Source: a virus
Strand: one strand, 5' to 3'
Length of the DNA stretch: 54,074 nucleotides
IMG/VR virus record: IMGVR_UViG_3300009783_000001
In this document: positions 40,247 to 54,074 of the stretch, one piece after another
Layout: each line of letters opens with the position of its first letter
How positions within the stretch are numbered: the stretch's first letter is position 1
Made by a program: the position numbers and the translations under genes
Notes under the pieces: model-generated
What the model was told of the DNA's origin: nothing
The model's input: the letters and a program-made list of their open reading frames with translations, nothing else
Databases searched by the model: none

Positions 40247-40533
40247 CAGATCATGTCCTCGATGTCGTCGGAGCCGATGGGGGCGGATGCGGTCAGGATC
40301 TTCATCGCCCGTGCCTCGATCAGCATCTTCAGCGATTCCATGAAGTCCGAATCCTCGTCGCAATCCTCGATGTCGAGACGCATCGGGATGATGAGCAGGT
40401 TCTTGATGTTCTCGTTGTGTGCGAGATCATCGGTGAAGAAGGTGTCGATGGCGTTGGCGAGTCCCTCGACCGCAGCTTCGGCGATCACCTCGCAAGCGTT
40501 GGCGATCTCGTGGTTCATCATTCCATCCCTCAT
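40246..40533 (-). CDS. hypothetical acidic protein (95 aa)
   Basis: ATG 40533 preceded by a CAACGAAAGGCAAAGGC leader and a promoter. Ends ...IEDMI. Confidence 0.55.
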   Translation of the reverse strand: MRDGMMNHEIANACEVIAEAAVEGLANAIDTFFTDDLAHNENIKNLLIIPMRLDIEDCDEDSDFMESLKMLIEARAMKILTASAPIGSDDIEDMI

Positions 40534-40562
40534 GCCTTTGCCTTTCGTTGGTTGATAGGGCA

Positions 40563-40610
40563 AGTTTACCATGACTTGTTGACCCTGTCAATAGCAGGTG
40601 CGGACTTCCT
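40563..40610 (-). promoter_or_regulatory. leftward promoter with GGAAGTCCGCACC upstream element
   Basis: Minus strand: GGAAGTCCGCACCTGCTA-TTGACA-N18-TAAACT-tgcc-CTATCAACCAACGAAAGG. Confidence 0.6.
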
Positions 40611-40704
40611 TCCGTGGCAGTCCCTAGGAAGGCTGAATCATCGAGCGGCATGCCCCCTTGCGAGCATCCGGAGCATCCTAGGGACGACTCCAGGCATGCG
40701 CTAC

Positions 40705-41160: not shown

Positions 41161-42017
41161 CAGGCCTCCTCGTCCAGGTCCAGCTCGATGTCGAGGAGGT
41201 CGATGTCGTCGGGGCCCTCGAGATCGTCGAGGTCGACTTCCACCACGTCGTCGGCTTCCGCCTCGTCGAGAGCGTCGTTCACGGTCTCGATGAACTCCTC
41301 GACGTCATCGGCGATCTCGTCGGGGGCGTCGGTCTTCTTCTTCGAGCCGGCGGACCATGCGGTGAATGCCTTCTTCACCTTCTTCATGTCCTTCTTCGAG
41401 ATGCCGTACCGGCCTCCCTGACCCACCGGGTCGATCGGTGACTTCCCCGATCGGAAGAACTTGCGGAGGGTTCGAGCATCCGTGCCCAGCTCCCTCGCAG
41501 CTTCCTTGGCGGAGAGCTTTTCTTCTGTAGCCATGTCCTGTTCCTTTTCCTCGGGTGTGAGGGCGTCGCCCTCGGTTGATAAAGGCATTGTATCTGAATC
41601 GCCAACCCCTGTCAACGGCAGGTCATGACTTCCTACCGGCCGGTCAGGGTGATTGCGGTCGATTCCCCATTCCTCGGGCTTCTGCGCACTTTTCCGAGGA
41701 CAGTCGCAATCCTTGCGGAGCTCGCCGCACTGTTTGCACTTGAGCTTGTCTTTGGGGACTCTCACGCGTCGGGGCTTGGGTGGGGGTGTCAGAACCAGGA
41801 GGCCACGATCCAGCTTGTACTGGAGGTCATCGCCATTCCACACCTCGGGCTCACCCTCTTCCCACTGGATTGTGACTCGACGGCCCGTGTGGTCGATCAC
41901 TCGTCCCATCATCACCGGGCCATAGTCGGGGCCCAGTGGACTGACTGAGAGGGCGACGAGAGTGTTGAGCTTCTGCTTCGGCAACGTGTAACCGGCGCCC
42001 TGCGACTTCCGGTTCAT
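41160..42017 (-). CDS. HTH(excisionase-like)/acidic-tail protein; long form from ATG 42017, short form from ATG 41534
   Basis: C-terminal 124 aa: LSAKEAARELGTDARTLRKFFRS...GQGGRYGI...FTAW plus an acidic tail. A full promoter lies in-frame inside the ORF at 41587-41633. Confidence 0.5.
   Translation of the reverse strand: MNRKSQGAGYTLPKQKLNTLVALSVSPLGPDYGPVMMGRVIDHTGRRVTIQWEEGEPEVWNGDDLQYKLDRGLLVLTPPPKPRRVRVPKDKLKCKQCGELRKDCDCPRKSAQKPEEWGIDRNHPDRPVGSHDLPLTGVGDSDTMPLSTEGDALTPEEKEQDMATEEKLSAKEAARELGTDARTLRKFFRSGKSPIDPVGQGGRYGISKKDMKKVKKAFTAWSAGSKKKTDAPDEIADDVEEFIETVNDALDEAEADDVVEVDLDDLEGPDDIDLLDIELDLDEEA
41587..41633 (-). promoter_or_regulatory. leftward promoter (internal to ORF 41160-42017)
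   Basis: Minus strand: GGAAGTCATGACCTGCCG-TTGACA-N17-TACAAT-gcct-TTATCAACC. Confidence 0.55.
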
Positions 42018-42695: not shown

Positions 42696-43030
42696 GATTG
42701 CCCCAGTTCGGAGAGGTCGTCGGGGGCGTGGATGGGTTCGAGGCAGGTGATGGGGTAGGTGATGCCCGTGCGGTACTTGCCCCGGAAGGACGGGCCGTCG
42801 ATGATGTTGCAAACCGCCTTGGTCTGCTTGATCTCGGTCACCTCGACGGTCGCTCCCAGCATGTACTGCGGCCGGCAGTTGACCAGCTTGCAGAGCGAGC
42901 CGACTTCGAGTTCGCCCTTGATGCGGATGGCGGCCTGTCGCCGTCGCAACTTGATCTCGTCGACGATGCGGCGGTTCAGTTTGAGCAAATCCTCGTCGGA
43001 GGCGCTCCGGATGTAATCGCTCATCTTCAT
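42692..43030 (-). CDS. hypothetical protein (112 aa)
   Basis: ATG 43030 preceded by a CAACGAAAGGCAATGCC leader and a promoter. Confidence 0.55.
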   Translation of the reverse strand: MKMSDYIRSASDEDLLKLNRRIVDEIKLRRRQAAIRIKGELEVGSLCKLVNCRPQYMLGATVEVTEIKQTKAVCNIIDGPSFRGKYRTGITYPITCLEPIHAPDDLSELGQS

Positions 43031-43059
43031 GGCATTGCCTTTCGTTGGTTGATAGCACC

Positions 43060-43106
43060 ATTATGCCACAACCGTAGCTCCGCGTCAATAGCCGGTGCGG
43101 ACTTCC
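43060..43106 (-). promoter_or_regulatory. leftward promoter with GGAAGTCCGCACC upstream element
   Basis: Minus strand: GGAAGTCCGCACCGGCTA-TTGACG-N17-CATAAT-ggtg-CTATCAACCAACGAAAGG. Confidence 0.6.
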
Positions 43107-43330
43107 TACCCAGTTGTTCCCAGGTAGAGGCAGAGTGCGATTACTGCGAGAGCGAGAATGGCCGCTCCGAGGATGAAGTCGTGCTGCCGATCGGAGAAGT
43201 AGGGCAGGGTCACGGTCTTGTGACAGGACCAGCACCCGATCTCCCCGACCTCCACATCCTCTTCGTACCCGATGTTCGCTTGACCGCAGTTCGGGCAGTA
43301 AACGGTCCAGGTCGGGTCACCCATACTCAT
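43106..43330 (-). CDS. membrane-anchored zinc-ribbon protein (74 aa)
   Basis: CPNCG...CWSCH followed by the C-terminal TM segment FILGAAILALAVIALCLYL. Confidence 0.5.
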   Translation of the reverse strand: MSMGDPTWTVYCPNCGQANIGYEEDVEVGEIGCWSCHKTVTLPYFSDRQHDFILGAAILALAVIALCLYLGTTG

Positions 43331-44547: not shown

Positions 44548-44772
44548 ATGACCGACGAGGATACGCACATGAGGACTTCGATGACCCAGGAGGACTGGGA
44601 CGAGTTTGCCCGGGCAATCCAGGGGTTCATCGACGGGGCTCAAACCTTCGCCGCTGTTCTGCTCAAGTTCCAGGACGATCTCCCCCTCACCACCGAGCAG
44701 CGCACGCAGGTTCAGAACTTGAGGGGTCGAGGCAGGAAGCCCGCACCGATCTGGGGTGACGGACCGCAGTGA
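44548..44772 (+). CDS. hypothetical protein (74 aa)
   Basis: First ORF after the promoter. Its stop overlaps the GTG of the primase gene. Confidence 0.5.
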   Translation: MTDEDTHMRTSMTQEDWDEFARAIQGFIDGAQTFAAVLLKFQDDLPLTTEQRTQVQNLRGRGRKPAPIWGDGPQ

Positions 44773-46823
44773 AGGCTGAGCAACAACTCTCAATCATCAG
44801 CAAGGCGTGGGGGAGGCAGTCCGGTTACTGCTTCTTCCCATGGATCGGGGGTGACGCCAAGGATCGCTCGGAGCGCATCAACTCGTACCACGAAGGTCCA
44901 CCTTTCCTCTGGCCGGAGGACAAGGCGAAGATCATCAAACACATGGAGGACCACACCCATGACGACCTCTACTGGTGCCCCTCACTCTTCGAGAAGAAGG
45001 CCCGACGCCTCGACTTCGCCATGGACGAACATGCTCTCTGGGCTGACCTCGATGAAGTCGATCCTCGAGAAGTTCCTGACGAGTACCGCCCCACCATCGC
45101 TTGGGAGTCCTCGCCTGGGCGGTACCAGGCTCTCTGGCTCGTTTCCGGTGGTGACATTCAGGGTGCCTCTTGGCCCGGTGGTGAGAATCAACGACTCACC
45201 TACCATCTGGGTGCAGATGTCGGAGGCTGGGATACCACCCAACTTCTGCGTATCCCAGGCTGGGACAATCACAAGCCCCATTACCGAGAGGCAAATGGTG
45301 GGAAGCCTCAGCGGGGCAAGCTCCTTTGGAGTACCGGCCGTCGGTACCTTGCGGATGAGTTCACCGACCTCCCTGAGGTTGCCGCCGCCGGGGTCGCTCA
45401 GAACATCGTCGAGGAAGAGATCGACCGGATCGACCGACATGAGGTGTGGGGGCGAGTCCGACTCAAGGTGAGCAAGAGGGTTCGGGAGCTCATCTCCAGC
45501 CGTGAAGTATCCGGCGACCGCAGCGATGCGCTCTGGGAGATCGAACGCGAACTCGCCGACGCGGGGTGCACGGTTACCGAGATCGTCGCCATCGCCCGAG
45601 CCACCGTCTGGAACAAGTTCTCGGGCCGCCAGGATGAGCTCCGCCGCCTCATCAGCGAGGCCAGTAAGGCCTACGAGGCCCGCTCCGAAGAGACGGTCGA
45701 GAAGATCGAGAAGGAGCTCGAGCACAAGCCCCCGCCCCAGCGCATCATGACCCTCCTCGCCAACGTCAAACCGCCGAAGTGGCTGGTCGAGGGCATCTGG
45801 GCAGAGGGCTCCTGCGGGTTCATCGCTGGGCAACCCAAGTCCTACAAGTCCTGGTGTGGCCTCGACCTCGGGCTCAGCATCGCCAGCGGTACCGACTTCC
45901 TCAACCAGTTCAAGGTCATCAACCCCGGGCCCGTCCTCTACATCCAGGAGGAGGACCCGGCGCCGGTGCTCAAGAACCGCTTCGAGAAGGTCTGGCCGGG
46001 GAAGCAGTCCGACCGCATGGAGATGGTCGACGGGGAGATGATCTGGACACCTCGCCAGGACGTTGCCCCTGACCCCGACCTCATGGCCTACGTTGGCGAG
46101 GGGTTCACGATTTCCGACACCGGGTGGCAGAGCTGGCTCGAGGGTACCCTCGACGACGGGCTCGATGGTGAGGGATACCGCATGGTCGTGATCGACCCGC
46201 TGATGATGGTTGCCGGCGATGTCGATGAGCACCGTGCACAGGAGATGACTGAGAAGATCTTCAAACCGCTCAAGCAACTGTCGCGTAAGCACAACGTCGC
46301 CATCTGCATCATCCACCACATGCGGAAGGGGAACGACACCAAGGGCAACACTGTCCGAGGCGGGCAGCGCATGCTGGGAAGCGTTGCCAACCATGCCTGG
46401 ACAGAAGATGCGCTCTATCTCTCCCTTGCCACACGCGACGTGATCGTCGAACGCGAATCCAAGCACTCGCCCTCAGGCAGCTTCAGGATCGGTCGGGTTC
46501 GCAATCGTGAGTGGATGCCCATCATCACAAACCTCGACCTGGGAATCGACGATGACGAGGAAACCTCCGTGGTCAACCAACCCACTGGGGCCACACCAAG
46601 GGACATTCCGCCCGGCGAGGATCGACCCCCAGGGAGGAAGTCTGGTCAGGGCAAGGCCATCCAGCTCGTACTCCAGGGCGGTGACTCCCGAACCACCAAG
46701 GACATCGCCATCGAGGTCGATATGTCAGTGAGCGGGGTCTCCAAGCAGCTCCGCAGGGCAGAAGCACAGGGCATCGTCCGGCACACCAGCCGAGGCTGGA
46801 TCCCCGGAGCAAAAGCCAAGTGA
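44769..46823 (+). CDS. primase (prim-pol/RepB'-like) fused to RepA/DnaB-type RecA-fold helicase, with C-terminal wHTH
   Basis: N-domain LWADLDEVD and ESSPGRYQALW. Walker A GQPKSYKSW, LYIQEEDP, VVIDPL, IIHHMRKG. C-terminus TTKDIAIEVDMSVSGVSKQLRRAEAQGIV. Confidence 0.8.
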   Translation: MKAEQQLSIISKAWGRQSGYCFFPWIGGDAKDRSERINSYHEGPPFLWPEDKAKIIKHMEDHTHDDLYWCPSLFEKKARRLDFAMDEHALWADLDEVDPREVPDEYRPTIAWESSPGRYQALWLVSGGDIQGASWPGGENQRLTYHLGADVGGWDTTQLLRIPGWDNHKPHYREANGGKPQRGKLLWSTGRRYLADEFTDLPEVAAAGVAQNIVEEEIDRIDRHEVWGRVRLKVSKRVRELISSREVSGDRSDALWEIERELADAGCTVTEIVAIARATVWNKFSGRQDELRRLISEASKAYEARSEETVEKIEKELEHKPPPQRIMTLLANVKPPKWLVEGIWAEGSCGFIAGQPKSYKSWCGLDLGLSIASGTDFLNQFKVINPGPVLYIQEEDPAPVLKNRFEKVWPGKQSDRMEMVDGEMIWTPRQDVAPDPDLMAYVGEGFTISDTGWQSWLEGTLDDGLDGEGYRMVVIDPLMMVAGDVDEHRAQEMTEKIFKPLKQLSRKHNVAICIIHHMRKGNDTKGNTVRGGQRMLGSVANHAWTEDALYLSLATRDVIVERESKHSPSGSFRIGRVRNREWMPIITNLDLGIDDDEETSVVNQPTGATPRDIPPGEDRPPGRKSGQGKAIQLVLQGGDSRTTKDIAIEVDMSVSGVSKQLRRAEAQGIVRHTSRGWIPGAKAK

Positions 46824-47112: not shown

Positions 47113-47517
47113 ATGGGTCTTGAACATCCCGAGGCACGCAAACACATTCCACCGGATGATGGAATGAAGTACCTGATGGATGCGACGAAGCACCAGGGGC
47201 TTCACTACTCGACGCTCACTTCCGGAGGTCCCGACTTCATGGAGTTTGGGGTCAAGCGCCATGGGGGTTGGGCGATGATCCTCGAGCCCGGTCTCGCCAG
47301 TGACTACCTGGCGACCATCGTCAACCTGCCCCAGAGCTGGAACGAGGGCAGGGGCGAGTACGACTACGCCAACATCTTCTTCGGCTTGGACAATGGGTGC
47401 CGAGCTGGAGGTCTCTACGGCCTTCGGGCGAAGGTCTACGCCAACGGGCAGAAGATCGCTGAGTATGGGGACTGGGATGGCGAACGGGAACCATGGACCG
47501 AAGCGGAGGGAGAATAG
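47113..47517 (+). CDS. hypothetical protein (134 aa)
   Basis: ATG 47113 with a GGAAGAAGGAA RBS. Confidence 0.5.
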   Translation: MGLEHPEARKHIPPDDGMKYLMDATKHQGLHYSTLTSGGPDFMEFGVKRHGGWAMILEPGLASDYLATIVNLPQSWNEGRGEYDYANIFFGLDNGCRAGGLYGLRAKVYANGQKIAEYGDWDGEREPWTEAEGE

Positions 47518-47519
47518 AC

Positions 47520-48194
47520 ATGGGGCGACAGACTGGTGATGGGCTGAGGTTCGAGGACCAGGTCGAGCGGGAGGTACGCAAACGACTAGCGGAGACCATG
47601 AGTAGTGCCGGAGTCAACCAAGGGAGGATCTCCATGGAGGTTCTCTACTGGCTGCCAGAGAACTTCGCTCGGCTCTACATGCAGATGGTGGACAAGGCCC
47701 TGAAGATGGATGATGGGGTTGGGAGCTCCATGGGCGGACAGACGGGTGATGAGGGGCAGATCAAGGCGAAGGTCGGGACAGGACCACAGAGGGGCAAGCA
47801 GGCGGGAGGGTTGTTCACTCGTGAGAGCGGGGCTCATGCAAGGGGCACGGGCAAGAGGTACCGAGTTCACTGGCTGGTGAAGGATGAGAACGCCTTCGCT
47901 CTCAAGGGCAAGATTGACCGGAAGCTCGGGGAACTCGCTCACCTCATCGCTCAAGGTGGAGGCGGGAAGATGGGTTCTGAGAAGAAGGTCGATGGGCGAA
48001 CCCCCCTCTCCCCTGGTGGGGATGCTGTTGCGGAGCGAGGCGAAACTCATGGAGTTGATCTGGGGGACCGCACGCTGAAGGTGCTGGGGGCTGGGAGACT
48101 GCAATGCAAGGGATGCGGGAAGATGGCCTCGAAGGGTTGGGTCATTTGCCCTCGTCCGCACAACCAGGGAAAGGACCAGGAACATGCAGGTTGA
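47520..48194 (+). CDS. hypothetical protein (224 aa) with C-terminal CxxC...C
   Basis: ATG 47520. Internal repeat MG(R/G)QTGD(G/E). C-terminus LQCKGCGKMASKGWVICP. Confidence 0.5.
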   Translation: MGRQTGDGLRFEDQVEREVRKRLAETMSSAGVNQGRISMEVLYWLPENFARLYMQMVDKALKMDDGVGSSMGGQTGDEGQIKAKVGTGPQRGKQAGGLFTRESGAHARGTGKRYRVHWLVKDENAFALKGKIDRKLGELAHLIAQGGGGKMGSEKKVDGRTPLSPGGDAVAERGETHGVDLGDRTLKVLGAGRLQCKGCGKMASKGWVICPRPHNQGKDQEHAG

Positions 48195-48411
48195 TCGAGA
48201 TGGCAACTACATGAAGGACGAAGGCGCTTACGGTGCTGATCCGAAGTCCGAGGTTGAGAAGGTGGACGAGGAAGTGCTGCGCCAGCAGGTGTGGGAAGCA
48301 CTTGGGGAACTGAGTGACGATGAGTTGAGGGTGCTGTACGGGCTTGAGGTGACTCGTGAGGTACTGGTGGGGATGATTGTTCATGCGATCTCACATGCGG
48401 ATGGTGCGTGA
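48184..48411 (+). CDS. hypothetical acidic protein (75 aa)
   Basis: ORF overlapping the upstream stop. ALGELSDDELRVLYGLE is faintly like sigma region 4 (not claimed). Confidence 0.4.
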   Translation: MQVDRDGNYMKDEGAYGADPKSEVEKVDEEVLRQQVWEALGELSDDELRVLYGLEVTREVLVGMIVHAISHADGA

Positions 48412-48508
48412 TGCGGTGATGGGTAGTAACGAGGATCGGGGACGGTTGCGAAATCAGGCAAACCTCGAGTGGTGTCACAATGCCAACGGGATCTCGGTTT
48501 CGGACGAG

Positions 48509-48590
48509 ATGTGACTCTCCGTGTGTCGTGTCTAGCATCAGAGCTGCTGGGGTTTCGGCCCAGCTCGTTCCGGACTCTCGTTTGATCTCA
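48509..48590. repeat. ATCAGAGCTGC element, copy 2
   Basis: gtgtcgtgTCTAGc-ATCAGAGCTGC(48537-48547)-tggggtttcggCCCAGCTCGTTCC. Confidence 0.55.
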
Positions 48591-48671
48591 AAACACATGG
48601 AAAGTACCGGAAAAGCATGAGACTACACGAGCACGGGAGCCGGACGGGAGAACTCCCACCGCCCTGGTCGG

Positions 48672-48687
48672 TGTGACGTGTGTCACA
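48672..48687. promoter_or_regulatory. TGTGA-N6-TCACA palindrome (CRP/GlxR-type operator-like site)
   Basis: TGTGACGTGTGTCACA, perfect. Confidence 0.6.
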
Positions 48688-48898
48688 AAATCGCTTGCGC
48701 CCTACCCCTGGTGTTCTCCCAGAGCCCCGTACGTGGTGTCCTAAGAGCGTTCCGTCGAAGCGCTAATAGGGTCAACCCCTGGGGCACGTACGAGGAGCGC
48801 TCGGACGCTTCTGTGCCGAACTCATGGAGAGAATCCCATGGAGATAATCTTGGCACAACCCGTGCCAAAAAGAAATCGACTTTGTTTGAACAAAAGCC

Positions 48899-48927
48899 TT
48901 GACGGGGTTTGAACCAGTGCCTAAGAT
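48899..48927 (+). promoter_or_regulatory. sigma70-like promoter of HTH paralogue 48988
   Basis: TTGAACAAAAGCC-TTGACG (48899-48904), 17 nt, TAAGAT (48922-48927). The leader contains ATCAACCAACG and CAACGAAAGGAAACCCC. Confidence 0.6.
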
Positions 48928-48987
48928 TATCCCATCAACCAACGCGCCGCATCACGATGATCGACGCAACGAAAGGAAACCCCAAAC

Positions 48988-49227
48988 ATGGCTCAGATCA
49001 CCGCCAAGGAACTGGCTGTCGCTTGCGACACCGACCCCCGCACCGTCCGGAAGTTCCTCCGTTCGCACATGGAGGACACCCCCGGGAAGGGCTCCCGCTA
49101 CGCCATCGAGAAGCGACAGGTCAAGTCGCTGGTCAAGGCATTCAACGCCTGGGATGAGGCCCGGAAGCCGGCTGCGACCGACGAGGTCGAGGTCGACGAG
49201 GTCGAGGTCGAGGTCGAAACCGACTGA
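48988..49227 (+). CDS. HTH (excisionase/MerR-like) protein with acidic tail, paralogue A
   Basis: ITAKELAVACDTDPRTVRKFLRS...GKGSRYAIEKRQVKSLVKAFNAW, plus tail DEVEVDEVEVEVETD. Confidence 0.7.
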   Translation: MAQITAKELAVACDTDPRTVRKFLRSHMEDTPGKGSRYAIEKRQVKSLVKAFNAWDEARKPAATDEVEVDEVEVEVETD

Positions 49228-49238
49228 CACCCGAACCA

Positions 49239-49286
49239 GCACCCCTCCCAACCCCCTCCCCCGGGAGGGGTGCTCGGTGTGTTCTG
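49239..49286 (+). terminator. intrinsic terminator
   Basis: GCACCCCTCCC-N13-GGGAGGGGTGC followed by TCGGTGTGTTCTG. Confidence 0.6.
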
Positions 49287-49300
49287 TCAAGGTTTTTCTG

Positions 49301-49316
49301 TGTGACGTGTGTCACG
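49301..49316. promoter_or_regulatory. TGTGA-N6-TCAC palindrome (CRP/GlxR-type site)
   Basis: TGTGACGTGTGTCACG. Starts copy 3 of the ATCAGAGCTGC element (49301-49385, core 49322-49332). Confidence 0.55.
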
Positions 49317-49400
49317 TCTAGATCAGAGCTGCCAGACTTCGCCGCCAACTCGTTCCCGTCCGCCCTGCGGGTTAGTTTGTTCGTGAACGCACAAGCACAA

Positions 49401-49416
49401 TGTGACACAGGTCACA
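49401..49416. promoter_or_regulatory. TGTGA-N6-TCACA palindrome (CRP/GlxR-type site)
   Basis: TGTGACACAGGTCACA, perfect. Exactly 100 nt after the previous site. Confidence 0.6.
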
Positions 49417-49496
49417 TCTCGCACCCTTGATAGGCGGGTGTCCCTTGCGTTGATGTCATCTTATCATCCGCGGGGTACCCCGTCAAGGAATTTCTT

Positions 49497-49512
49497 TGTG
49501 ACCTGTGTCACA
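49497..49512. promoter_or_regulatory. TGTGA-N6-TCACA palindrome (CRP/GlxR-type site)
   Basis: TGTGACCTGTGTCACA, perfect. Preceded by GTCAAGGAATTTCTT, as the 49301 site is by GTCAAGGTTTTTCTG. Confidence 0.6.
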
Positions 49513-49836
49513 AATTTGCCGATGCGCCGATGGCAGAATGCTCTCATTGCCCCGTAGGAGGCGTCCTAAGCGCGTGCCACGCATAGCGCCCCTGTTAGGG
49601 GGATTAGGAGCAGGCGTCGAAGCGCTCTCACGCCCTCCTAGGGGCAATCACGGGCGTTGCCACCTAAGGAGATATCAACAGGCAAGATGGGTGATGGGTG
49701 CGCAGCATGCCTCGACCGCCTTAGGGACGCTTCTAGGGGGCAATGCGGCGAAGTCGCTCGAGTCATCCTTATCGCACGACGCGCACGCGAGTACCACACC
49801 TCGCCGCCGATGTCAAGGAATTGCTCGCCGAATCGC

Positions 49837-49852
49837 TGTGAACTTTGTCACC
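49837..49852. promoter_or_regulatory. TGTGA-N6-TCAC site upstream of promoter 49874
   Basis: TGTGAACTTTGTCACC, 22 nt upstream of the -35. Confidence 0.5.
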
Positions 49853-49873
49853 CCGATTTCTTGAACAAATGCC

Positions 49874-49902
49874 TTGACCAATGCCTTGCATCATGCGATG
49901 AT
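49874..49902 (+). promoter_or_regulatory. sigma70-like promoter of HTH paralogue 49957
   Basis: TTGAACAAATGCC-TTGACC (49874-49879), 17 nt, GATGAT (49897-49902). The leader contains ATCAACCGA and CAACGAAAGGAAAACCCC. Confidence 0.55.
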
Positions 49903-49956
49903 CTTCATATCAACCGATCGCAACCGATGCGATCGCAACGAAAGGAAAACCCCATC

Positions 49957-50187
49957 ATGGCAACGCTCACGATCAAGGAAACCGCGCTCGAGATCGGCAC
50001 CGATCCCCGCACGCTTCGCAAGTTCCTGCGCAGCGACGCATCCCCGATCGCTCCGGTCGGGAAGGGTGCTCGATACGCGATCGAGCGCAAGGCGCTGAGG
50101 GGGGTTAAGGCGAAGTTCGCCGCCTGGGATGCCGCTCGCACCCCCGCCACCCCCGAACCCGCTGACGACGCGCCTGACGCGAACTGA
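49957..50187 (+). CDS. HTH (excisionase/MerR-like) protein with acidic tail, paralogue B
   Basis: LTIKETALEIGTDPRTLRKFLRSDASPIAPVGKGARYAIERKALRGVKAKFAAW, plus an acidic/Pro tail. Confidence 0.7.
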   Translation: MATLTIKETALEIGTDPRTLRKFLRSDASPIAPVGKGARYAIERKALRGVKAKFAAWDAARTPATPEPADDAPDAN

Positions 50188-50198
50188 CGCGATGCTGA

Positions 50199-50232
50199 TC
50201 CCCGCCTTCGGGCGGGGGTCAGTTGTGTGTTG
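50199..50232 (+). terminator. intrinsic terminator
   Basis: CCCCGCC-ttcg-GGCGGGG followed by GTCAGTTGTGTGTTG. Confidence 0.65.
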
Positions 50233-50354
50233 CAACTGACTCGGCGAAGCATGAAATGCCATGAGGATCCACTCGGCGATTCGGCGCCGCCCGATCGCTG
50301 GTTTGGCACCACGGGGCGTGAGTCGCGTCCTAAGGCGGTGCCACCCCCTCGCTC

Positions 50355-50366
50355 AATGCTAGCATT
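50355..50366. repeat. AATGCTAGCATT 12-bp palindrome, copy 1
   Basis: Context CTCAATGCTAGCATTC. Confidence 0.7.
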
Positions 50367-50410
50367 CTGGGCATCCGGTCCCCGCGGCGGTTCGGCGTCG
50401 AGGTGCCCGA

Positions 50411-50430
50411 GTAGTTGAAGTTTCAACTAC
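50411..50430. repeat. GTAGTTGAA-gt-TTCAACTAC hairpin just upstream of a -35
   Basis: 9-bp inverted repeat, related to the TAGTTGAG/CTCAACTA hairpins. Confidence 0.55.
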
Positions 50431-50439
50431 ATTTCCTCC

Positions 50440-50468
50440 TTGACTTTCCACACCACCCATGCGATGAT
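50440..50468 (+). promoter_or_regulatory. promoter of leaderless ORF 50475
   Basis: TTGACT, 17 nt, GATGAT, then exactly 6 nt to the ATG. Confidence 0.55.
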
Positions 50469-50474
50469 CTTCCC

Positions 50475-50672
50475 ATGACCCACCTGATGAACTCCCTCTC
50501 GCTCGCTGCGCATCTCACGCTCGAGAACGATCGCACCTGCCCCGCTTGCGGGGAATACCTCGATTCGGGGATGGGATTCGATCGACGCGACTTCGAATGC
50601 ACGGAATGCGACTTCTTCACTGACTACCCCGCCGAACTCGCCCTCGCCTTCTTCCGCCTCGACTTTCCCTGA
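50475..50672 (+). CDS. Cys-rich micro-protein, paralogue 1 (65 aa)
   Basis: LSLAAHLTLENDRTCPACGEYLDSGMGFDRRDFECTEC. Paralogous to 51106-51324. Confidence 0.55.
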   Translation: MTHLMNSLSLAAHLTLENDRTCPACGEYLDSGMGFDRRDFECTECDFFTDYPAELALAFFRLDFP

Positions 50673-50677
50673 TTCTT

Positions 50678-50708
50678 CCCCCTCATGCCTTGACACCGCA
50701 TGAGGGGG
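50678..50708 (+). terminator. 11-bp perfect hairpin whose loop is the -35 of the next promoter
   Basis: CCCCCTCATGC-cTTGACAcc-GCATGAGGGGG. Confidence 0.55.
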
Positions 50709-50718
50709 ATGATATGAT
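50690..50718 (+). promoter_or_regulatory. promoter of leaderless ORF 50725
   Basis: TTGACA, 17 nt, TATGAT, then exactly 6 nt to the ATG. Confidence 0.6.
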
Positions 50719-50724
50719 TGCTGC

Positions 50725-51021
50725 ATGAACCACACCGACATCATCAACTTCATCTCGATCGACAACGACGATGCTTGCAACGCCGACGATCGCTACGCCT
50801 TCATGATCGACTACCTGATCGACCCACGCGACACTCGCTACCTGCTCTCCGACTTCGATTCGATCCACCCCGCCCTCACGACGATCGCCGACATGATCGA
50901 CGAACTCGATGCCGACGAAACGCGCCGCCTGCTCGAATCATACGAACTCTGCCCGATCCACCGATGCGACGATGCGATCTGCGCCGATGACGCCAACCCC
51001 GAATGCGCCCACCTGCGCTGA
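50725..51021 (+). CDS. acidic Cys-containing hypothetical protein (98 aa)
   Basis: Leaderless-type ORF. ...ELCPIHRCDDAICADDANPECAHLR. Confidence 0.55.
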   Translation: MNHTDIINFISIDNDDACNADDRYAFMIDYLIDPRDTRYLLSDFDSIHPALTTIADMIDELDADETRRLLESYELCPIHRCDDAICADDANPECAHLR

Positions 51022-51032
51022 TCTGATCCGCC

Positions 51033-51057
51033 CCCCATGCGATGCGACCGCATGGGG
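51033..51057 (+). terminator. hairpin after 50725-51021
   Basis: CCCCATGCG-atgcgac-CGCATGGGG. Confidence 0.5.
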
Positions 51058-51071
51058 TGACGGATGTCACA
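51056..51071. promoter_or_regulatory. GTGA-N6-TCACA site abutting the -35 of promoter 51072
   Basis: GGTGACGGATGTCACA, immediately followed by TTGACA. Confidence 0.5.
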
Positions 51072-51099
51072 TTGACAAACCGCCCCGCCATGATAGGAT
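51072..51099 (+). promoter_or_regulatory. promoter of leaderless ORF 51106
   Basis: TTGACA, 16 nt, TAGGAT, then exactly 6 nt to the ATG. Confidence 0.6.
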
Positions 51100-51105
51100 G
51101 GATGC

Positions 51106-51324
51106 ATGAACCAAATCACAACGCTCCTCTTCCTCGCCGCCCTCTGCACGCTCGAACGCGACCGCCAATGCCCCGAATGCCCGCACGGGGAACTCGACTC
51201 GGGGATGGGATTCGGACGCCGCGATCTCGAATGCTGCGGATTCGATGAGGATGATGAGGATGAGGATTGCGGATTCGCGATCTCCTACTCCATCACGCTC
51301 TACCTCGATCTCATCGCCGCCTGA
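51106..51324 (+). CDS. Cys-rich micro-protein, paralogue 2 (72 aa)
   Basis: LFLAALCTLERDRQCPECPHGELDSGMGFGRRDLECCGFDEDDEDEDCG. Confidence 0.55.
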   Translation: MNQITTLLFLAALCTLERDRQCPECPHGELDSGMGFGRRDLECCGFDEDDEDEDCGFAISYSITLYLDLIAA

Positions 51325-51334
51325 TCCCGCCCGC

Positions 51335-51365
51335 TGCGCCGCCCTCCGGGGCGGTGCTTCGGCGT
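51335..51365 (+). terminator. intrinsic terminator-like hairpin
   Basis: GCGCCGCCC-tcc-GGGGCGGTGC followed by TTCGGCGTG. Confidence 0.5.
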
Positions 51366-51409
51366 GAGAGGGGCGCAGGAGCGTCGTAGCGGCGGTGTGG
51401 GGGCAGACA

Positions 51410-51425
51410 GGAATGCTAGCATTCC
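51410..51425. repeat. GGAATGCTAGCATTCC 16-bp perfect palindrome (AATGCTAGCATT copy 2)
   Basis: Core at 51412-51423. Confidence 0.7.
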
Positions 51426-51587
51426 CGGCGTAAAACAGCGTCAAAGAGCTCTAGTTTGGTCCGTGAAGAGATTCTCCGCCTAAGGAGATGCGAGGGCAGT
51501 GCCCGCAGGGTCGCCCCACTATGGGGGTCAACTCGCTTAGGACGCTTCTGACGCGATCTGACGCCACACGCCACCAGAAGGAAATGG

Positions 51588-51617
51588 TTGACAAGCGATC
51601 GCCCGCATTGGCAGGAT
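51588..51617 (+). promoter_or_regulatory. promoter of leaderless ORF 51624
   Basis: TTGACA, 18 nt, CAGGAT, then exactly 6 nt to the ATG. Confidence 0.5.
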
Positions 51618-51623
51618 CTGCCC

Positions 51624-51758
51624 ATGACCCGCACACGCAACCTCATCGCCGCATCCGCCCTCGCCCTCGCCGTCGCCCTGACCGCGTGCCAACCCGCTCC
51701 GCCCATCGAGTCGTGCGACCCGCTCCCCGGCATGCCCTGCACTCCCGAGCACCCCTGA
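51624..51758 (+). CDS. tiny predicted lipoprotein (44 aa)
   Basis: MTRTRNLIAASALALAVALTAC: basic n-region, hydrophobic core and an L-T-A-C lipobox. The mature part is 23 aa with 3 Cys. Confidence 0.5.
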   Translation: MTRTRNLIAASALALAVALTACQPAPPIESCDPLPGMPCTPEHP

Positions 51759-51763
51759 CCGGG

Positions 51764-51779
51764 TGTGCCGAACGTCACA
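51764..51779. promoter_or_regulatory. TGTG-N7-TCACA near-site upstream of promoter 51791
   Basis: TGTGCCGAACGTCACA. Confidence 0.4.
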
Positions 51780-51790
51780 GAAGAAAGTCC

Positions 51791-51818
51791 TTGACATCGT
51801 GCCCGAGTCATATAGGAT
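51791..51818 (+). promoter_or_regulatory. promoter of leaderless ORF 51825
   Basis: GAAGAAAGTCC-TTGACA, 16 nt, TAGGAT, then exactly 6 nt to the ATG. Confidence 0.6.
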
Positions 51819-51824
51819 GACTGC

Positions 51825-51947
51825 ATGAACCGCACCGACGAACACACCAACCACGACCACGGCCTTTGCGAGGGATGCGGCGAGGAGACCTGCCTCGCCA
51901 AGGATTCCGACCTCTGCCTCGCCTGCGCCTACGACCCGGAGTACTGA
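51825..51947 (+). CDS. Cys-rich micro-protein (40 aa)
   Basis: MNRTDEHTNHDHGLCEGCGEETCLAKDSDLCLAC. Below the ORF-track cutoff. Confidence 0.4.
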   Translation: MNRTDEHTNHDHGLCEGCGEETCLAKDSDLCLACAYDPEY

Positions 51948-51949
51948 TC

Positions 51950-52117
51950 ATGAACCACATCGACACCCACGACGAAGAACTCGCCGACTGCCCGACCCAC
52001 GGCGACGACCAGGTGGTCACCGCCATCCACACGGGGCCGGGGTTCTGCACTCCGATGACCCTGCTCACCCTCGCCTGCGGTTGCCAACAGGTCGAGGGCG
52101 ACCACATCGAGGACTGA
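51950..52117 (+). CDS. Cys-containing micro-protein (55 aa)
   Basis: MNHIDTHDEELADCPTHGDD...LACGCQQ. Starts 2 nt after the previous stop. Confidence 0.45.
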   Translation: MNHIDTHDEELADCPTHGDDQVVTAIHTGPGFCTPMTLLTLACGCQQVEGDHIED

Positions 52118-52123
52118 ACCTTC

Positions 52124-52156
52124 CCGCCGCCGCCCTCCGGGGCGGTGGTTTGGTGT
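52124..52156 (+). terminator. intrinsic terminator
   Basis: CCGCCGCCC-tcc-GGGGCGGTGG followed by TTTGGTGT. Confidence 0.6.
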
Positions 52157-52262
52157 CGACCTTCGTGGAGTCGGAAGTTCAGGTCGTAGGTGTGGGACCT
52201 CAAGTTAGGTTCTCGTAGGGAGCCCGTAGGAGTCGACGAGAGGGCCGCTCGCCCAATCACTC

Positions 52263-52274
52263 AATGCTAGCATT
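52263..52274. repeat. AATGCTAGCATT palindrome, copy 3
   Basis: Context CTCAATGCTAGCATTC, identical to the copy 1 context. Confidence 0.7.
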
Positions 52275-52373
52275 CCTGACATGATAGGGAGTCGTTAGGA
52301 CACTCCTCAGGATGACTGATCGCATCACGTCGATCGTCGATGACCGATCGCCGACCTCCTGGGAAGAAAGTCC

Positions 52374-52402
52374 TTTACTTGTGCCCTGAGGTAAGGTACT
52401 AT
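52374..52402 (+). promoter_or_regulatory. promoter of leaderless ORF 52409
   Basis: GAAGAAAGTCC-TTTACT, 17 nt, TACTAT, then exactly 6 nt to the ATG. Confidence 0.5.
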
Positions 52403-52408
52403 ACCTAC

Positions 52409-52684
52409 ATGCCCTCCACCACCCACTTCAACTGCCCCACCTGCGATCGGCTCGGGCCTGCCGGTCGGGATCGCGAACAGGAACTCAAGAACCTCCGGGC
52501 ACGCCTCCGCAGGGTCTACCGCAACTACAACCCGACTCCTGATGAGGGAATCGGAACCAAGGCCTGGTCCGACCACATGAAGAAGGTTCGCCCGATCTTC
52601 GACTCCATGGATGACTACAAGTCCATGCTGACCATCGACCGCCAGGCCCTGAAGGATCACCTCCAGGAAGGTGTGGGAGGCTGA
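52409..52684 (+). CDS. hypothetical protein with N-terminal CPTC (91 aa)
   Basis: MPSTTHFNCPTCDRLGPAGRDREQELKNLRARLRRV... Confidence 0.5.
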   Translation: MPSTTHFNCPTCDRLGPAGRDREQELKNLRARLRRVYRNYNPTPDEGIGTKAWSDHMKKVRPIFDSMDDYKSMLTIDRQALKDHLQEGVGG

Positions 52685-52696
52685 CCCTGCCGAGGA

Positions 52697-52712
52697 AGTG
52701 ACCAACGTCACA
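52697..52712. promoter_or_regulatory. GTGA-N6-TCACA site
   Basis: AGTGACCAACGTCACA. Confidence 0.45.
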
Positions 52713-52892
52713 TAAGTATTCTTGGTGTATAGGGCAGGGGGAGCCTATATGCCGGGTATGGGCCCCCTACCTCCCTGCTCCTACCACGAAGATTTTTGGG
52801 AGGGTTTTTCCAAACCTATGGAGAAAGGCCTGAGTAGACCGCCCTGGATAGGTCCCTAGGATGGCCTCAGAATCGCCCCCATATGGGCGCCC

Positions 52893-52904
52893 TATGCTAG
52901 CATT
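52893..52904. repeat. ATGCTAGCAT palindrome, copy 4
   Basis: TATGCTAGCATT; 10-bp perfect core at 52894-52903. Confidence 0.6.
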
Positions 52905-52946
52905 GAGGGCACAGAGGGAGGGCTCTAGGCATTGCTCAGGCTCTAG

Positions 52947-53232
52947 AGGTAGGTAAGTGGGCAGGCATCAGCAGTAGGTAGTAGTAGGTAGGTGGGTAGG
53001 TAGGATGGGTAGGTAGTAGGTACCTCAGAGGTAGGCATATGGGTAGGTATAGGCAGGGGGCAGGTATAGGTAGGTATGTGGGTATGGGTACCAGGTGGGT
53101 AGGTGGGTAGTATTCTGGTAGGGATATCAGCATCCTGATCGTGGTAGGTGGGAGGTGAGTAGTAGTAGGATAGAGGAGGGCATTGCCTTCCTTCATTGGT
53201 AGGTAAGAGAGGAGGGTGGGGGATGGGGGTAT
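52947..53232 (+). repeat. C-depleted GGTAGG/GGGTAGGT repeat block
   Basis: At least 12 GGTAGG copies. Hand count gives 24 C in 286 nt, with C-free runs of 50, 40 and 38 nt. Bounded by GGTAGGTAAG at both ends (52948 and 53198). Confidence 0.85.
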
Positions 53233-53534
53233 CCCTAACTGCTCCAGTGTCCGCTCCGTCCTCCGTTGGTAGGATGAGAGCAGTAGGTCCCGGGTCTGTG
53301 ACGAACAACAAACAACGAACCACGACGACGAAGGCTGAACCCCCCCGGGTCATATGGTGTACGTGTTGTAGTAACGACCGTCCTCTACTCCGCCTGCGAA
53401 CTTCTGGCTCTTTTCCAAATCTTTGCTACCACGTCACACCATGCACAGGGCGATATGCCCTCACCGTCGATAGCCGTACAAACCCCGTACGACTAAACCA
53501 CACTATCACGGGCAGATCGAATAGAGCGTTCTCC

Positions 53535-53563
53535 TTGCCTAGAAAGAACCCATGCGATAGAGT
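53535..53563 (+). promoter_or_regulatory. sigma70-like promoter at the head of the late operon
   Basis: TTGCCT (53535-53540), 17 nt, TAGAGT (53558-53563). AAAGGAG RBS before ATG 53591. Confidence 0.5.
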
Positions 53564-53590
53564 CTAGGCTCACCGACAAAGGAGTACAGC

Positions 53591-53980
53591 ATGCTGCTGT
53601 CCTACGACCACTGCCTCGACCTCGCCATCCGGGGACCCTGGGGCTCCGAACCCCCGACCACGAAGGAGATCACCGACCGAGCCGACGCGTACTTCAAGGC
53701 TCAGGGCCAGGTCAAGCCTGGGGACCTGAAGCCCATCTCGGACGCCCTCGGCATCGACACCGGCGAGATCCCGCCCGGCCCCGATGTCATCGACGTGGTC
53801 CTCGCCCGGATCGCCGAGATCAAGGAGCGGCTGCAGGGGCGGAACGGCGACAACGCCATCCTCAACTCCGAGGTGGCCGAGCTCACCCGGAAGCTGAGCA
53901 AGACCGAGCTCCGCCTCATCGACCTGACTGCGTGCTTGTGCCCGAAGTTCGCCCGCGCTGACCGAGGGGACCGGGCATGA
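53591..53980 (+). CDS. hypothetical protein (129 aa), first gene of the late operon
   Basis: ATG with an AAAGGAG RBS. Its 3' end runs into the terminal repeat and is ATGA-coupled to the ORF annotated at 26-235. Confidence 0.55.
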   Translation: MLLSYDHCLDLAIRGPWGSEPPTTKEITDRADAYFKAQGQVKPGDLKPISDALGIDTGEIPPGPDVIDVVLARIAEIKERLQGRNGDNAILNSEVAELTRKLSKTELRLIDLTACLCPKFARADRGDRA

Positions 53981-54074
53981 GCGCCGCAGACCGCACCATC
54001 CAGCCGATGCGCGAGCGTCCGGGCCGACCTGTCGCCTCCGGCTTCACGCTGCTGCCGCCCGCCGAGCAAGAACG
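53952..54074. repeat. terminal direct repeat, right copy (identical to 1-123)
   Basis: Same 123-nt string as 1-123. Could be an assembly overlap of a circular or circularly permuted genome, or a true DTR. Confidence 0.95.

Follow-up and report, generated by a model that had tools for sequence, protein, structure and literature searches.

The question raised by this locus is what role a short stretch of strongly G-rich, C-depleted repeats could play in the untranslated DNA of a phage genome. The window, i.e. the whole stretch of 54,074 nt that was analysed (IMGVR_UViG_3300009783_000001), is a circularised metagenome contig of an actinophage, and the GGTAGG/TAGG repeat stretch, referred to below as the block, occupies positions 52947–53232 on its plus strand. 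The ends of the window overlap by 123 identical bases (1–123 = 53952–54074), which brings the true length to 53951 bp on a circular or concatemeric map; the end junction is spanned by contig L191. A megablast search of 52000–54074 against GenBank phages gave no match.

The block consists of 127 G, 69 T, 66 A and 24 C over 286 nt. The C count and the lengths of its C-free runs, which start at 52973 (50 nt), 53141 (40 nt) and 53195 (38 nt), are those given in the initial annotation. No other 286-nt window of the genome has fewer C than this stretch (24) or more G (128). The extreme strand asymmetry noted earlier is also real: the G–C skew is 0.73–0.77 compared with a genome mean of -0.003 (s.d. 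0.12), and the block forms the genome-wide maximum of G-over-C skew, the interval 52981–53180 containing 91 G and 14 C. Twelve copies of GGTAGG lie within the block, which agrees with the earlier figure of at least 12, and of the genome's 17 plus-strand copies, 13 fall within 52948–53273. Counted on both strands the hexamer occurs 45 times against 15.2 ± 3.8 in dinucleotide-preserving shuffles, none of 100 of which reached 45. The shorter core TAGG is present in 16 copies where 0.2 are expected, and these asymmetric units all point in one direction.

Smaller features of the block were mostly found as first described. The framing decamers, GGTAGGTAAG, occur at 52948 and 53198 and at no other site; GGTACC is present at 53019 and 53087; and the small palindrome, ATCAGcatcCTGAT, a conserved element of 5-4-5 form, lies at 53126–53139. 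The motif (A/G)TGGGTAGGT had been counted five times, but only four copies are within the block and the fifth is elsewhere in the genome. The description as a repeat block holds for the enrichment of GGTAGG but not in the sense of a regular tandem array. TRF detects short sub-arrays only (periods 4, 7 and 13 at 52974–53022, 17 at 53041–53074 and 8 at 53093–53110), GGTAGG copies are spaced irregularly by 4–55 nt, and the block is best described as about 16 irregular units over 286 bp.

The block does not appear to be expressed as a protein or as a structured RNA. It is taken to be non-coding because insertions and deletions of 1 and 2 nt within it separate the window from the corresponding regions of two close relatives, contigs L189 and L207. 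These indels break the frame and so rule out a minus-strand low-complexity gene, and the minus-strand ORFs also fail the GC3 filter (≥0.72) that real genes meet. No Rfam family matched the block at the gathering threshold, a tRNA scan found nothing, and no Watson–Crick structure was detected in it (z = +2.1 as RNA, +0.4 as DNA), 99 of 100 shuffles folding at least equally well as RNA. A structured non-coding RNA is not supported, since the block has no Rfam match and folds worse than shuffled sequence.

This lack of secondary structure, together with the composition of the leftward 286-nt RNA (44% C, 8% G), would suit a polar Rho-dependent terminator, in which the leftward transcript acts as a rut-like element and stops antisense transcription from entering the predicted direct terminal repeat (DTR; see below). 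We consider this very improbable, as the DNA to its right has no leftward gene or promoter for about 25 kb, and such a terminator would leave the TAGG core, the conserved core sequence and the fixed relation to the terminus module unexplained.

A G-quadruplex or R-loop function was among the roles first listed for the block. The 286 nt have a mean G4Hunter score of 0.93, which exceeds that of the genome by about 5 s.d., and contain 19 overlapping motifs of the two-tetrad (G2) kind. The strongest plus-strand G4Hunter segment of the genome, GGAGGGTGGGGGATGGGGG, is situated at 53204–53233, and its counterpart in L189 contains four G3+ runs with loops of 1–2 nt. However, the block contains no canonical G3+ quadruplex (four G3+ runs, loops of 1–7 nt) and only one when loops of up to 12 nt are allowed, and scores of at least 1.5 are confined to two segments, 53040–53065 and 53197–53238. 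Such a role is possible but weak. Known G-rich priming elements of the R-loop or G-quadruplex type include the ColE1 RNA II hybrid region and mitochondrial CSB II. The block is similar to these in having a G-rich non-template strand and strong strand asymmetry, and the phage encodes a Pol I-type polymerase. It differs from them in having neither a canonical G3 motif nor a promoter to transcribe through it, and in having a terminator-like hairpin upstream.

The suggestion of an iteron origin was not supported. The TRF periods of 4, 7, 13, 17 and 8 extend over short stretches with irregular spacing, and the locus shows no phased 17–22-bp repeats, AT-rich unwinding element, adjacent initiator gene or DnaA-box enrichment. 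The GC content is 52–58% throughout 52700–53400, with no AT-rich unwinding element near the block, and the primase-helicase gene is 6 kb away. DnaA boxes (TTNTCCACA, up to 1 mismatch) are not enriched in the window (25 found, 30 expected), and the untranslated region around the block contains three isolated one-mismatch matches in no paired arrangement.

This untranslated region measures 906 bp (52685–53590; ORF and GC3 analysis, with gene calls on identical contigs) and extends from the end of the last gene of the predicted DTR, at 52684, to the start of the unique region's first gene (53591–53980). The placement given in the initial annotation was correct: the block sits in an extended stretch that is not translated, some 300 nt ahead of a conserved promoter-like site and some 2 kb ahead of a terS-like gene. 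Upstream of it on the plus strand, an imperfect GC-rich hairpin (GGGCAGGGGGAG...CTCCCTGCTCC) is followed by two T runs (52735–52812). This corresponds to the terminator-like T-run region previously noted near 52790, and the hairpin is conserved in L207, but the terminator scan calls no plus-strand terminator there; we regard it as a weak terminator candidate for the DTR genes. A palindrome, ATGCTAGCAT, then occurs at 52894–52903. It repeats in reversed form the CTCAATGCTAGCATTC motif of repeat families D16 and D19, which is found at 50357, 51412 and 52263, each time upstream of a DTR gene. Downstream, the plus-strand spacer at 53233–53335 contains a C-rich stretch around 53236–53272 and an (ACGAACA)n run at 53301–53325, and relatives have pyrimidine-rich or ATGA-repeat spacers at the same position. 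The late promoter proposed at 53535 can be matched to a plus-strand site, TTGCCT-N17-TAGAGT (53535–53563), that is 97% identical in L189, but it agrees with the consensus at 8 of 12 positions and falls just short of the scan threshold. It is simply the first promoter-like site past the predicted repeat boundary; a similar site, TTGACG-N18-TAGACT, is present at about 1279–1308. The promoter scan found no promoter within or directly after the block.

The setting of the block becomes clearer by comparison with cultured phages. By TerL identity the nearest cultured relatives are Curtobacterium phage Shrew (63%) and Microbacterium phage Triscuit (58%), for which DTRs of 4512 bp and 3795 bp, respectively, were verified by the identity of the record ends (that of Triscuit is also given in PMC7302621, Table 1). 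Across the right DTR boundary of both phages runs a module consisting of TGAACCCCCCC, about 40 nt, GAC/C (the slash marking the boundary), about 40 nt and CTACCACGT; both records end 51 nt past the G of GAAC7. The same module is present at 53336–53434 of the window, and for this reason a genome terminus, equivalent to the right DTR boundary, is predicted near 53378–53387, with GAC/CGTCC between 53378 and 53379 as the preferred position. The left half of the module is the TGAACCCCCCCGGGTCAT box on the plus strand (53336–53353), which shows 94–100% pairwise identity in close relatives. TGAAC7 is retained in 12 of 13 aligned relatives, L033 having CCAAC7, while L032, which is outside this alignment, has a variant with six C. 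GAC/C is the consensus at the boundary column in most of the 13 relatives. The right half is a conserved plus-strand box past the predicted terminus (CGTCCTCTACTCCGCCTGCGAACTTCTGGCTCTTTTCCAAATCTTTGCTACCACGT; 53379–53434). Measured from AAC7 to CTACCACGT, the module covers 97 nt in the window, L189 and Triscuit, against 98 nt in Shrew and 95 nt in L033; measured from the G of GAAC7, the pattern matches in the other relatives span 96–100 nt. The module pattern had ten matches in IMG/VR, from which L197 and L202 were left out as likely chance matches (43% GC, apparently coding). The block is situated 105–390 nt upstream of the module and 146–440 nt from the predicted cut, inside the right end.

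The conservation of this locus is sharply divided. A check among close relatives showed that the block is kept in L189 and L207, its core (53010–53160, which includes the invariant palindrome) having 87–92% pairwise identity between these and the window compared with 51–79% in the flanks. In the three close relatives identity rises from 36–56% at 53354–53378 to 96–100% at 53379–53428, a switch that falls exactly at the predicted terminus. The block core, the GAAC7 box and the 50 nt past the predicted cut thus form conserved islands, separated by segments of 36–62% identity. In 9 of 12 module-bearing relatives (the window, L189 and Shrew included) the strongest G-over-C skew of the whole locus, as far as it is available, is found 360–610 nt upstream of GAAC7, and L032 provides a further case of an upstream G-skew array. 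The G runs are kept across relatives while the exact unit and the array length vary. The TAGG core is enriched in 9 of 12 blocks, which points to sequence-specific recognition rather than to composition alone. Triscuit, L201 and L204 are without a strong array directly upstream of the module, and a large array is therefore not strictly required. The array units include a GGTAGG type and a ATAGGGGG type.

Two wider scans were made. One, for three GGTAGG copies in IMG/VR, was uninformative, with at least 120 unrelated contigs returned. The other, which examined skew at 68 TerL-related loci, gave few matches because most of these loci end before the DTR boundary, and its strongest match, L005, was a false lead from a purine-rich coding region.

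The conservation pattern disfavours the view that the block is functionless low-complexity DNA that slippage created and a non-coding gap can tolerate. Irregular, degenerate units, and an array length and exact motif that vary between relatives, are what such DNA would show; against this stand the difference in identity between core and flanks, the recurrence at the same position in at least nine relatives as the locus-wide skew extreme, and the parallels in T5 and T7 described below. We therefore find the absence of function highly improbable. There is strong support for the block being genuine, for its being non-coding and conserved, and for its position next to a module that is homologous to the right DTR boundary of cultured relatives.

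The left limit of the terminal repeat is less precisely placed. The second-strongest G-over-C skew peak of the genome (48249–48449, plus strand; 87 G, 28 C), which partly overlaps the genes at 47493–48194 and 48184–48411, suggests one, since in Triscuit, Shrew, T5 and Musetta the left DTR boundary comes directly after the strongest or second-strongest G-skew peak. On this comparison the left boundary is predicted just downstream of the peak, near 48.45 kb, and the contig of one relative (L208) starts at the window-equivalent of 48433. Homology searches for this boundary, in which Shrew and Triscuit were compared with the window and with one another, gave nothing significant, so the left limit is only approximate. 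Contigs counted per gene for two-fold coverage of the DTR numbered 2–3 each, too few to inform. We infer by homology that a DTR of about 4.9 kb occupies 48450–53380 on the plus strand as one collapsed copy, and the contig is very probably a collapsed genome with a terminal repeat of roughly this length.

The 'cassette array' of the initial annotation is on this prediction the gene content of the terminal repeat, namely small ORFan genes and two MerR/excisionase-like helix–turn–helix (HTH) paralogues (48988–49227 and 49957–50187). Of the two, the gene at 48988 has a homologue in the DTR of Triscuit (gp1/gp106) and in that of Shrew (gp2/gp113), in each case the first HTH gene of the repeat, and this synteny, with the second skew peak, matches the DTRs of the relatives and supports the assignment. 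A profile search of the DTR genes against PHROGs gave no matches beyond HTH families, and none that were A1- or A2-like.

The presence of these paralogues raises the possibility that the block is an operator or nucleation array for a DTR-encoded HTH protein, for example one that silences or insulates the boundary between pre-early and later transcription. An HTH gene lies directly upstream of the module in Triscuit, L201, L204 and L199, and the conserved 5-4-5 palindrome within the block could be read as an operator. However, clearer operator-like palindromes of other sequence are found in the region, TGTGAC-N-GTCACA at 48672, 49299, 49395 and 49500 and AATGCTAGCATT at four sites; one-way asymmetric TAGG units are unusual for dimeric HTH operators; and, as mentioned above, no promoter adjoins the block. 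An operator function is accordingly judged quite improbable.

The proximity of a predicted DNA end makes a role in recombination or replication initiation conceivable, although we think it unlikely. The predicted right terminus carries the 3′ end of the G-rich strand, and 5′-to-3′ resection of the right end would expose an unstructured top strand containing the block as a G/T-rich 3′ tail. This tail would be a preferred substrate for the phage annealase or recombinase, so that DTRs could pair with one another in concatemer formation or recombination-dependent replication. In another version, a G-rich R-loop or G-quadruplex produced by rightward transcription would prime the phage Pol I. Relevant enzymes are encoded by the phage: an exonuclease (36012–37124), a Sak4-like annealase (37009–38031), a Pol I (32329–34860) and a RepB′-type primase-helicase (44769–46823). 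The block is 69% G+T, its poor folding and its high G4Hunter score, with the top plus-strand site at 53204–53233, are compatible with either version, and it is the G runs that are kept in relatives while the exact unit changes. This reading is weakened by the missing canonical G3N1–7 motif and adjoining AT-rich unwinding element, and by the terminator-like hairpin between the DTR genes and the block. Furthermore, the conserved 150-nt core, the invariant palindrome and the shared TAGG core point to protein recognition rather than composition alone, and the other G-rich peak is found beyond the DTR, at a great distance from any DNA end.

The closest parallel in layout is found in T5. In both genomes a large untranslated, repeat-rich region follows the last terminal-repeat gene and a terminator and crosses into unique DNA (9158–10935 in T5, with the boundary at 10219; 52685–53590 in the window, with the boundary predicted near 53380). 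Each region exceeds its neighbouring genes in conservation and carries the genome-wide G-over-C maximum just inside the repeat boundary; in T5, where the G-rich part consists of the DRD repeats, this maximum (9992–10191; 78 G, 12 C) falls just short of the LTR end at 10219. The peak ranking second in skew is likewise found, in both genomes, immediately ahead of the left boundary of the other repeat copy. The TerL proteins are distantly homologous. The two regions differ in that no sequence similarity is detectable between them, the T5 inverted repeats with paired DnaA boxes are absent from the window, and the T5 repeat is 10.2 kb long and includes A1 and A2, neither of which was found in the window.

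It could be argued from this layout that the block marks a T5-type injection stop or pre-early boundary, where the DTR enters first and transfer pauses at the repeat-rich end until the DTR proteins are made. The TerL shares about 23% identity with T5-like TerL across 90% of its length, a distant relationship, the small ORFan and HTH genes of the DTR could be pre-early functions, and the iss region of T5 has been described as more conserved than neighbouring genes (Davison, bioRxiv 10.1101/866236). Yet the first-step-transfer shear point of T5 is at about 9618 and the iss candidates (IRD′-spacer-IRC′, DRE and paired DnaA boxes at 9332–9620) lie to the left of the G-rich stretch. DnaA boxes are neither enriched nor paired in the window, and no DTR gene matched an A1- or A2-like PHROGs family. 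To our knowledge, two-step transfer has never been reported for actinophages. We consider this explanation improbable.

A further likeness is seen in T7, where the genome-wide skew minimum is a CCTAAAG array adjoining the 160-bp repeat (146–345, skew -0.48 to -0.64). Such heptamer arrays flank the repeat and are known as SRL and SRR (Dunn & Studier 1983). T7 and the window share degenerate, short, one-way units at terminal-repeat boundaries that form a genome-wide extreme of strand asymmetry, and the T7 and actinophage arrays have a common CCTA/TAGG core, perhaps by coincidence. T7 differs in polarity, being C-rich on the strand written left to right, in having its array mainly outside the right repeat boundary, in its short repeat, and in being a podovirus with an unrelated terminase. 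Literature on T7 concatemer-junction repeats and on Curtobacterium phages contained no description of an element such as the block. The initial annotation knew of no described element with this repeat. Analogous G-run arrays are present at the same position in relatives and in T5, and the block is thus a lineage-specific version of a recurrent feature. We know of no demonstrated function for the analogous arrays in T5 or T7.

Among the roles listed at the outset, a packaging-recognition array fits best, as the block adjoins the DTR-boundary module, although its function is only inferred. We tentatively propose, at somewhat less than even confidence, that the block is a cis-acting DTR-end element just inside the right end, probably an array recognised by the terminase or the terminus-forming machinery. 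Replication would give concatemers with one DTR copy between neighbouring genomes, and the packaging machinery would cut within the TGAACCCCCCC-N40-GAC/C-N40-CTACCACGT module. The repeat array just inside the cut would serve as a multi-site landing pad, in the manner of lambda cosB or SPP1 pacL/pacR, on which an oligomeric DNA-recognition component, most plausibly the small terminase subunit, would assemble. The assembled component would then position and orient the large subunit for the right-end cut and for the start of translocation into the DTR. That the array is bound by terminase and is functional in packaging is offered as a hypothesis only.

Arrays recognised by TerS include the R sites of lambda cosB, the pacL/pacR boxes of SPP1 and the pac hexamers of P1, and consist of 3–7 well-defined sites within 100–200 bp, next to or inside terS. 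The block is similar in that its short motifs are clustered within a few hundred bp of a terminase cut, here a predicted one, and on the side packaged first if packaging starts at the right end. It differs in having about 16 irregular units over 286 bp, located about 2 kb from a weak terS candidate. This irregular spacing counts against a packaging array, as it is unlike that of well-phased protein-binding arrays, and the conserved module spanning the cut might alone be sufficient for terminase recognition. The binding protein proposed is also uncertain, because the terS-like gene (1347–1961) depends on one weak PHROG match (phrog_10899, E = 3.5e-4); it has no Pfam or PDB sequence match, and its homologues in Shrew and Triscuit, where gp34 and gp24 are the respective TerS candidates, are annotated as hypothetical.

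The genome-wide G/C-skew extremes of T5, Shrew, Triscuit and Musetta all lie within a few hundred bp of repeat boundaries, as does that of T7 with opposite polarity, and both repeat boundaries in the T5-like and actinophage cases are preceded by a G-rich stretch of like orientation. It is possible, if doubtful, that strand-asymmetric short-repeat arrays are a general polar landmark of DTR boundaries. If so, these arrays would be the long-sought cis signals that mark the start and end of a long terminal repeat for packaging and repeat duplication, and they might act by strand-specific recognition or through a G-rich single-strand, G4 or R-loop intermediate. This bears on how long DTRs are recognised, cut and duplicated, which is a question even for T5; for DTR actinophages no description of packaging signals was found in the searchable literature. 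The boundary module and its adjoining array are directly testable in two cultured phages, Shrew and Triscuit. For the uncultured phage studied here, the termini are predicted from a circular contig, the left near 48.45 kb and the right at 53378–53387, and the cassette array is recast as a set of terminal-repeat genes; in T5-type phages it is the terminal repeat that holds the host-takeover genes expressed first. Extremes of skew near repeat boundaries may help to find DTRs in metagenome-assembled phage genomes, and if the landmark is general, DTR boundaries would be predictable from sequence alone in circularised metagenome contigs.

The genome is that of a siphovirus-like actinophage with a GC content of 61%. 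The first 123 bases of the window are identical to 53952–54074 and an independent contig spans the end junction; these findings show that the genome is 53951 bp long and its assembly circularised, the template having been circular or concatemeric and the identical ends an overlap left by assembly. One gene crosses the junction, starting at 53977 and running on to 235. TerL, portal, major capsid protein, Pol I, ligase, helicase, exonuclease, a Sak4-like annealase and a RepB'-type primase-helicase are encoded, and neither tRNA genes nor Rfam families were found in the window. The G-rich, C-depleted repeat block (52947–53232) lies within a 906-bp untranslated gap (52685–53590) flanked by two rightward genes. 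Read on the minus strand, it could be a polar rut site, but no leftward transcription is evident. The few leftward genes of the genome carry at their 5' ends repeated 27–42-nt elements (40530–40613, 41611–41637 and 43027–43110) of the form GTCAATAGC.GGTGCGGACTTCCT.CC and TCATG.C.TTGCCTTTCGTTGGTTGATAG, which are probably promoter or operator units of a separate regulon.

The block contains 127 G, 69 T, 66 A and 24 C, the lowest C and the highest G count among all 286-nt windows of the genome, and its G–C skew is 0.73–0.77, the mean for the genome being −0.003 (s.d. 0.12). The C-free runs of 50, 40 and 38 nt described in the initial annotation were reproduced, as were the ATCAGcatcCTGAT palindrome, both GGTACC sites and the decamers that frame the block; (A/G)TGGGTAGGT occurs four times rather than five. 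GGTAGG is found 12 times within the block; the plus strand of the genome has 17 copies, 13 of which fall in 52948–53273, and both strands together have 45, against 15.2 ± 3.8 in shuffles. As TRF returned short sub-arrays only, the block is a mosaic of degenerate, irregularly spaced units and not a regular tandem repeat. An iteron origin was tested and not supported.

Curtobacterium phage Shrew, at 63% TerL identity, is the nearest cultured phage, followed by Microbacterium phage Triscuit at 58%. The long direct terminal repeats (DTRs) in their records were confirmed as identical ends of 4512 and 3795 bp, respectively, and PMC7302621 also gives '3795bp DR' for Triscuit. A module at 53336–53434 of the window is common to the right DTR boundary of both phages, and consists of TGAACCCCCCC, about 40 variable nt, a GAC/C-type junction, about 40 nt and CTACCACGT. 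The span from AAC7 to CTACCACGT is 97 nt in the window, 98 in Shrew, 97 in Triscuit, and 97 and 95 in contigs of two relatives (L189 and L033). A pattern scan of IMG/VR gave eight further genuine carriers, and another relative, L032, has a variant of the module. The genomes of Shrew and Triscuit end exactly 51 nt past the G of GAAC7. Transferred to the window, this distance predicts a right terminus at 53378–53387, the cut being most plausibly GAC/CGTCC at 53378/53379, which would place the block 146–440 nt inside the right end. Two promoter-like sites, at 53535–53570 after the predicted boundary and at ~1279–1312 before the terS-like gene (1347–1961), share an extended −10 region, gaTAGAsTCT(t)AGG.

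Uncultured close relatives of ~80–89% nucleotide identity span this region (L189, L207 and, in part, L208), and pairwise identity across the untranslated gap is strongly patterned. It is 52–79% in the flank (52818–52946), 62–94% in the left part of the block (52947–53009), 87–92% in the block core with its invariant palindrome (53010–53160), 51–62% in the right part and spacer (53161–53336) and 94–100% in the TGAACCCCCCCGGGTCAT box (53337–53353). The predicted cut coincides exactly with a switch from 36–56% (53354–53378) to 96–100% (53379–53428), the 25 nt right before it being hypervariable between two almost invariant boxes. This pattern speaks against junk DNA. Indels of 1 and 2 nt between relatives within the block exclude a conserved reading frame, and a minus-strand gene is likewise not supported. 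The data show or strongly support that the block is a real, non-coding and conserved element, and that the module it adjoins has its homologue at the right DTR boundary of cultured relatives.

Nine of the 12 relatives with the module have the peak G-over-C skew of their whole available locus 360–610 nt upstream of GAAC7, with no background window reaching it; Triscuit falls in its own top 0.3%. The window shares the unit GGTAGG(T) with L189 and L207, whereas Shrew and five relatives (L198, L200, L205, L206 and L032) have (T)ATAGGGGG, and the TAGG core is enriched in 9 of 12 blocks though units vary by lineage. The spacer between array and module is variable, and pyrimidine-rich or of ATGA repeats. 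L005, a lower-GC relative by TerL, carries ~1.2 kb of almost C-free, purine-rich sequence (1300–2500) that looks protein-coding, with unusual codon and amino-acid bias.

Homology links the HTH gene at 48988 to gp1 of Triscuit and gp2 of Shrew, in each phage the first HTH gene within the DTR. In both phages the strongest or second-strongest genomic G-skew peak directly precedes the left DTR boundary. The second-strongest peak of the window is at 48249–48449, and the L208 contig starts at window-equivalent 48433. From these observations together we infer a DTR in this genome; they suggest a length of ~4.9 kb, from ~48.45 to 53.38 kb, which would hold the small-gene stretch initially annotated as a 'cassette array'. 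Direct sequence similarity at the left boundary was sought and not found, so this limit is approximate. Two paralogous cassettes (48965–49061 and 49934–50030, 73% nucleotide identity) each comprise a leader and an excisionase/MerR-like HTH gene, other duplicated pairs are 50559–50611/51193–51245 and 51337–51365/52128–52156, and internal duplication appears to have enlarged the predicted DTR. A palindromic motif, (CTC)AATGCTAGCATT(C), lies upstream of three of its small genes (50357, 51412 and 52263) and once, reversed, just ahead of the block (52894). Operator-like palindromes, TGTGAC-N(3-4)-GTCACA, at 48672, 49299, 49395 and 49500, in untranslated stretches near two HTH paralogue genes, are probably binding sites of the HTH paralogue proteins. 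The presence of these clearer operators elsewhere argues against reading the block as an array of operators bound by the HTH proteins of the DTR.

The window TerL is distantly similar to that of T5-like phages (~23% identity over 90% of its length). In T5 (NC_005859), ranked over the 111.5-kb non-redundant genome, the G-skew maximum (9992–10191; 78 G, 12 C) is in the part annotated as iss, a short way inside the left repeat, whose right boundary is at 10219; the second-highest peak (110817–111400) comes immediately ahead of where the right repeat begins. The window has the same two-peak layout. Its layout also matches a T5-type injection-stop signal, but DnaA-box pairs are absent from the window and A1/A2 genes were not found. 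The T5 shear point (~9618) and iss candidates lie left of the G-rich stretch, which is one of the repeats, as yet unexplained, that lie between iss and the end of the terminal repeat (Davison, bioRxiv 10.1101/866236); no mention of skew peaks at the repeat boundaries was found in that paper. Musetta is a long-DTR actinophage from another cluster; its top two G-skew windows, one directly ahead of the left boundary and the other ~360 nt past the right one, are weaker (0.33–0.40). T7 (NC_001604) reaches its genome-wide skew minimum in the array of CCTAAAG heptamers that adjoins the 160-bp repeat (146–345; 39590–39720); the heptamer has, possibly by coincidence, a CCTA/TAGG core in common with the actinophage arrays. 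We know of no established function for the T5 and T7 arrays. Strand-asymmetric short-repeat arrays therefore recur at terminal-repeat boundaries with a polarity that is not universal, and the block, of which no earlier report was found in the literature searched, is a genuine, conserved variant of them.

The block is best interpreted as a cis-acting element at the end of the DTR. We hypothesize that terminase binds the array and that it functions in packaging, as a multi-site recognition array for assembly of the machinery, most plausibly of the small terminase subunit. Once assembled, the machinery would cleave the DNA inside the neighbouring module and initiate translocation, in a manner resembling that at lambda cosB or SPP1 pacL/pacR. 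Against this stand a poorly supported TerS candidate, irregular unit spacing and some relatives with little array. A role in recombination or replication is possible, either through the 3' strand at the right end, which is G/T-rich and unstructured, or through priming by a G4 or R-loop; G4Hunter values are elevated in the block, but it holds no canonical G4 motif. Folding gave no sign of Watson–Crick structure in the block (z = +2.1 as RNA, +0.4 as DNA), and a structured RNA is not supported. The position of the block strongly suggests that its putative function is in forming the genome end.
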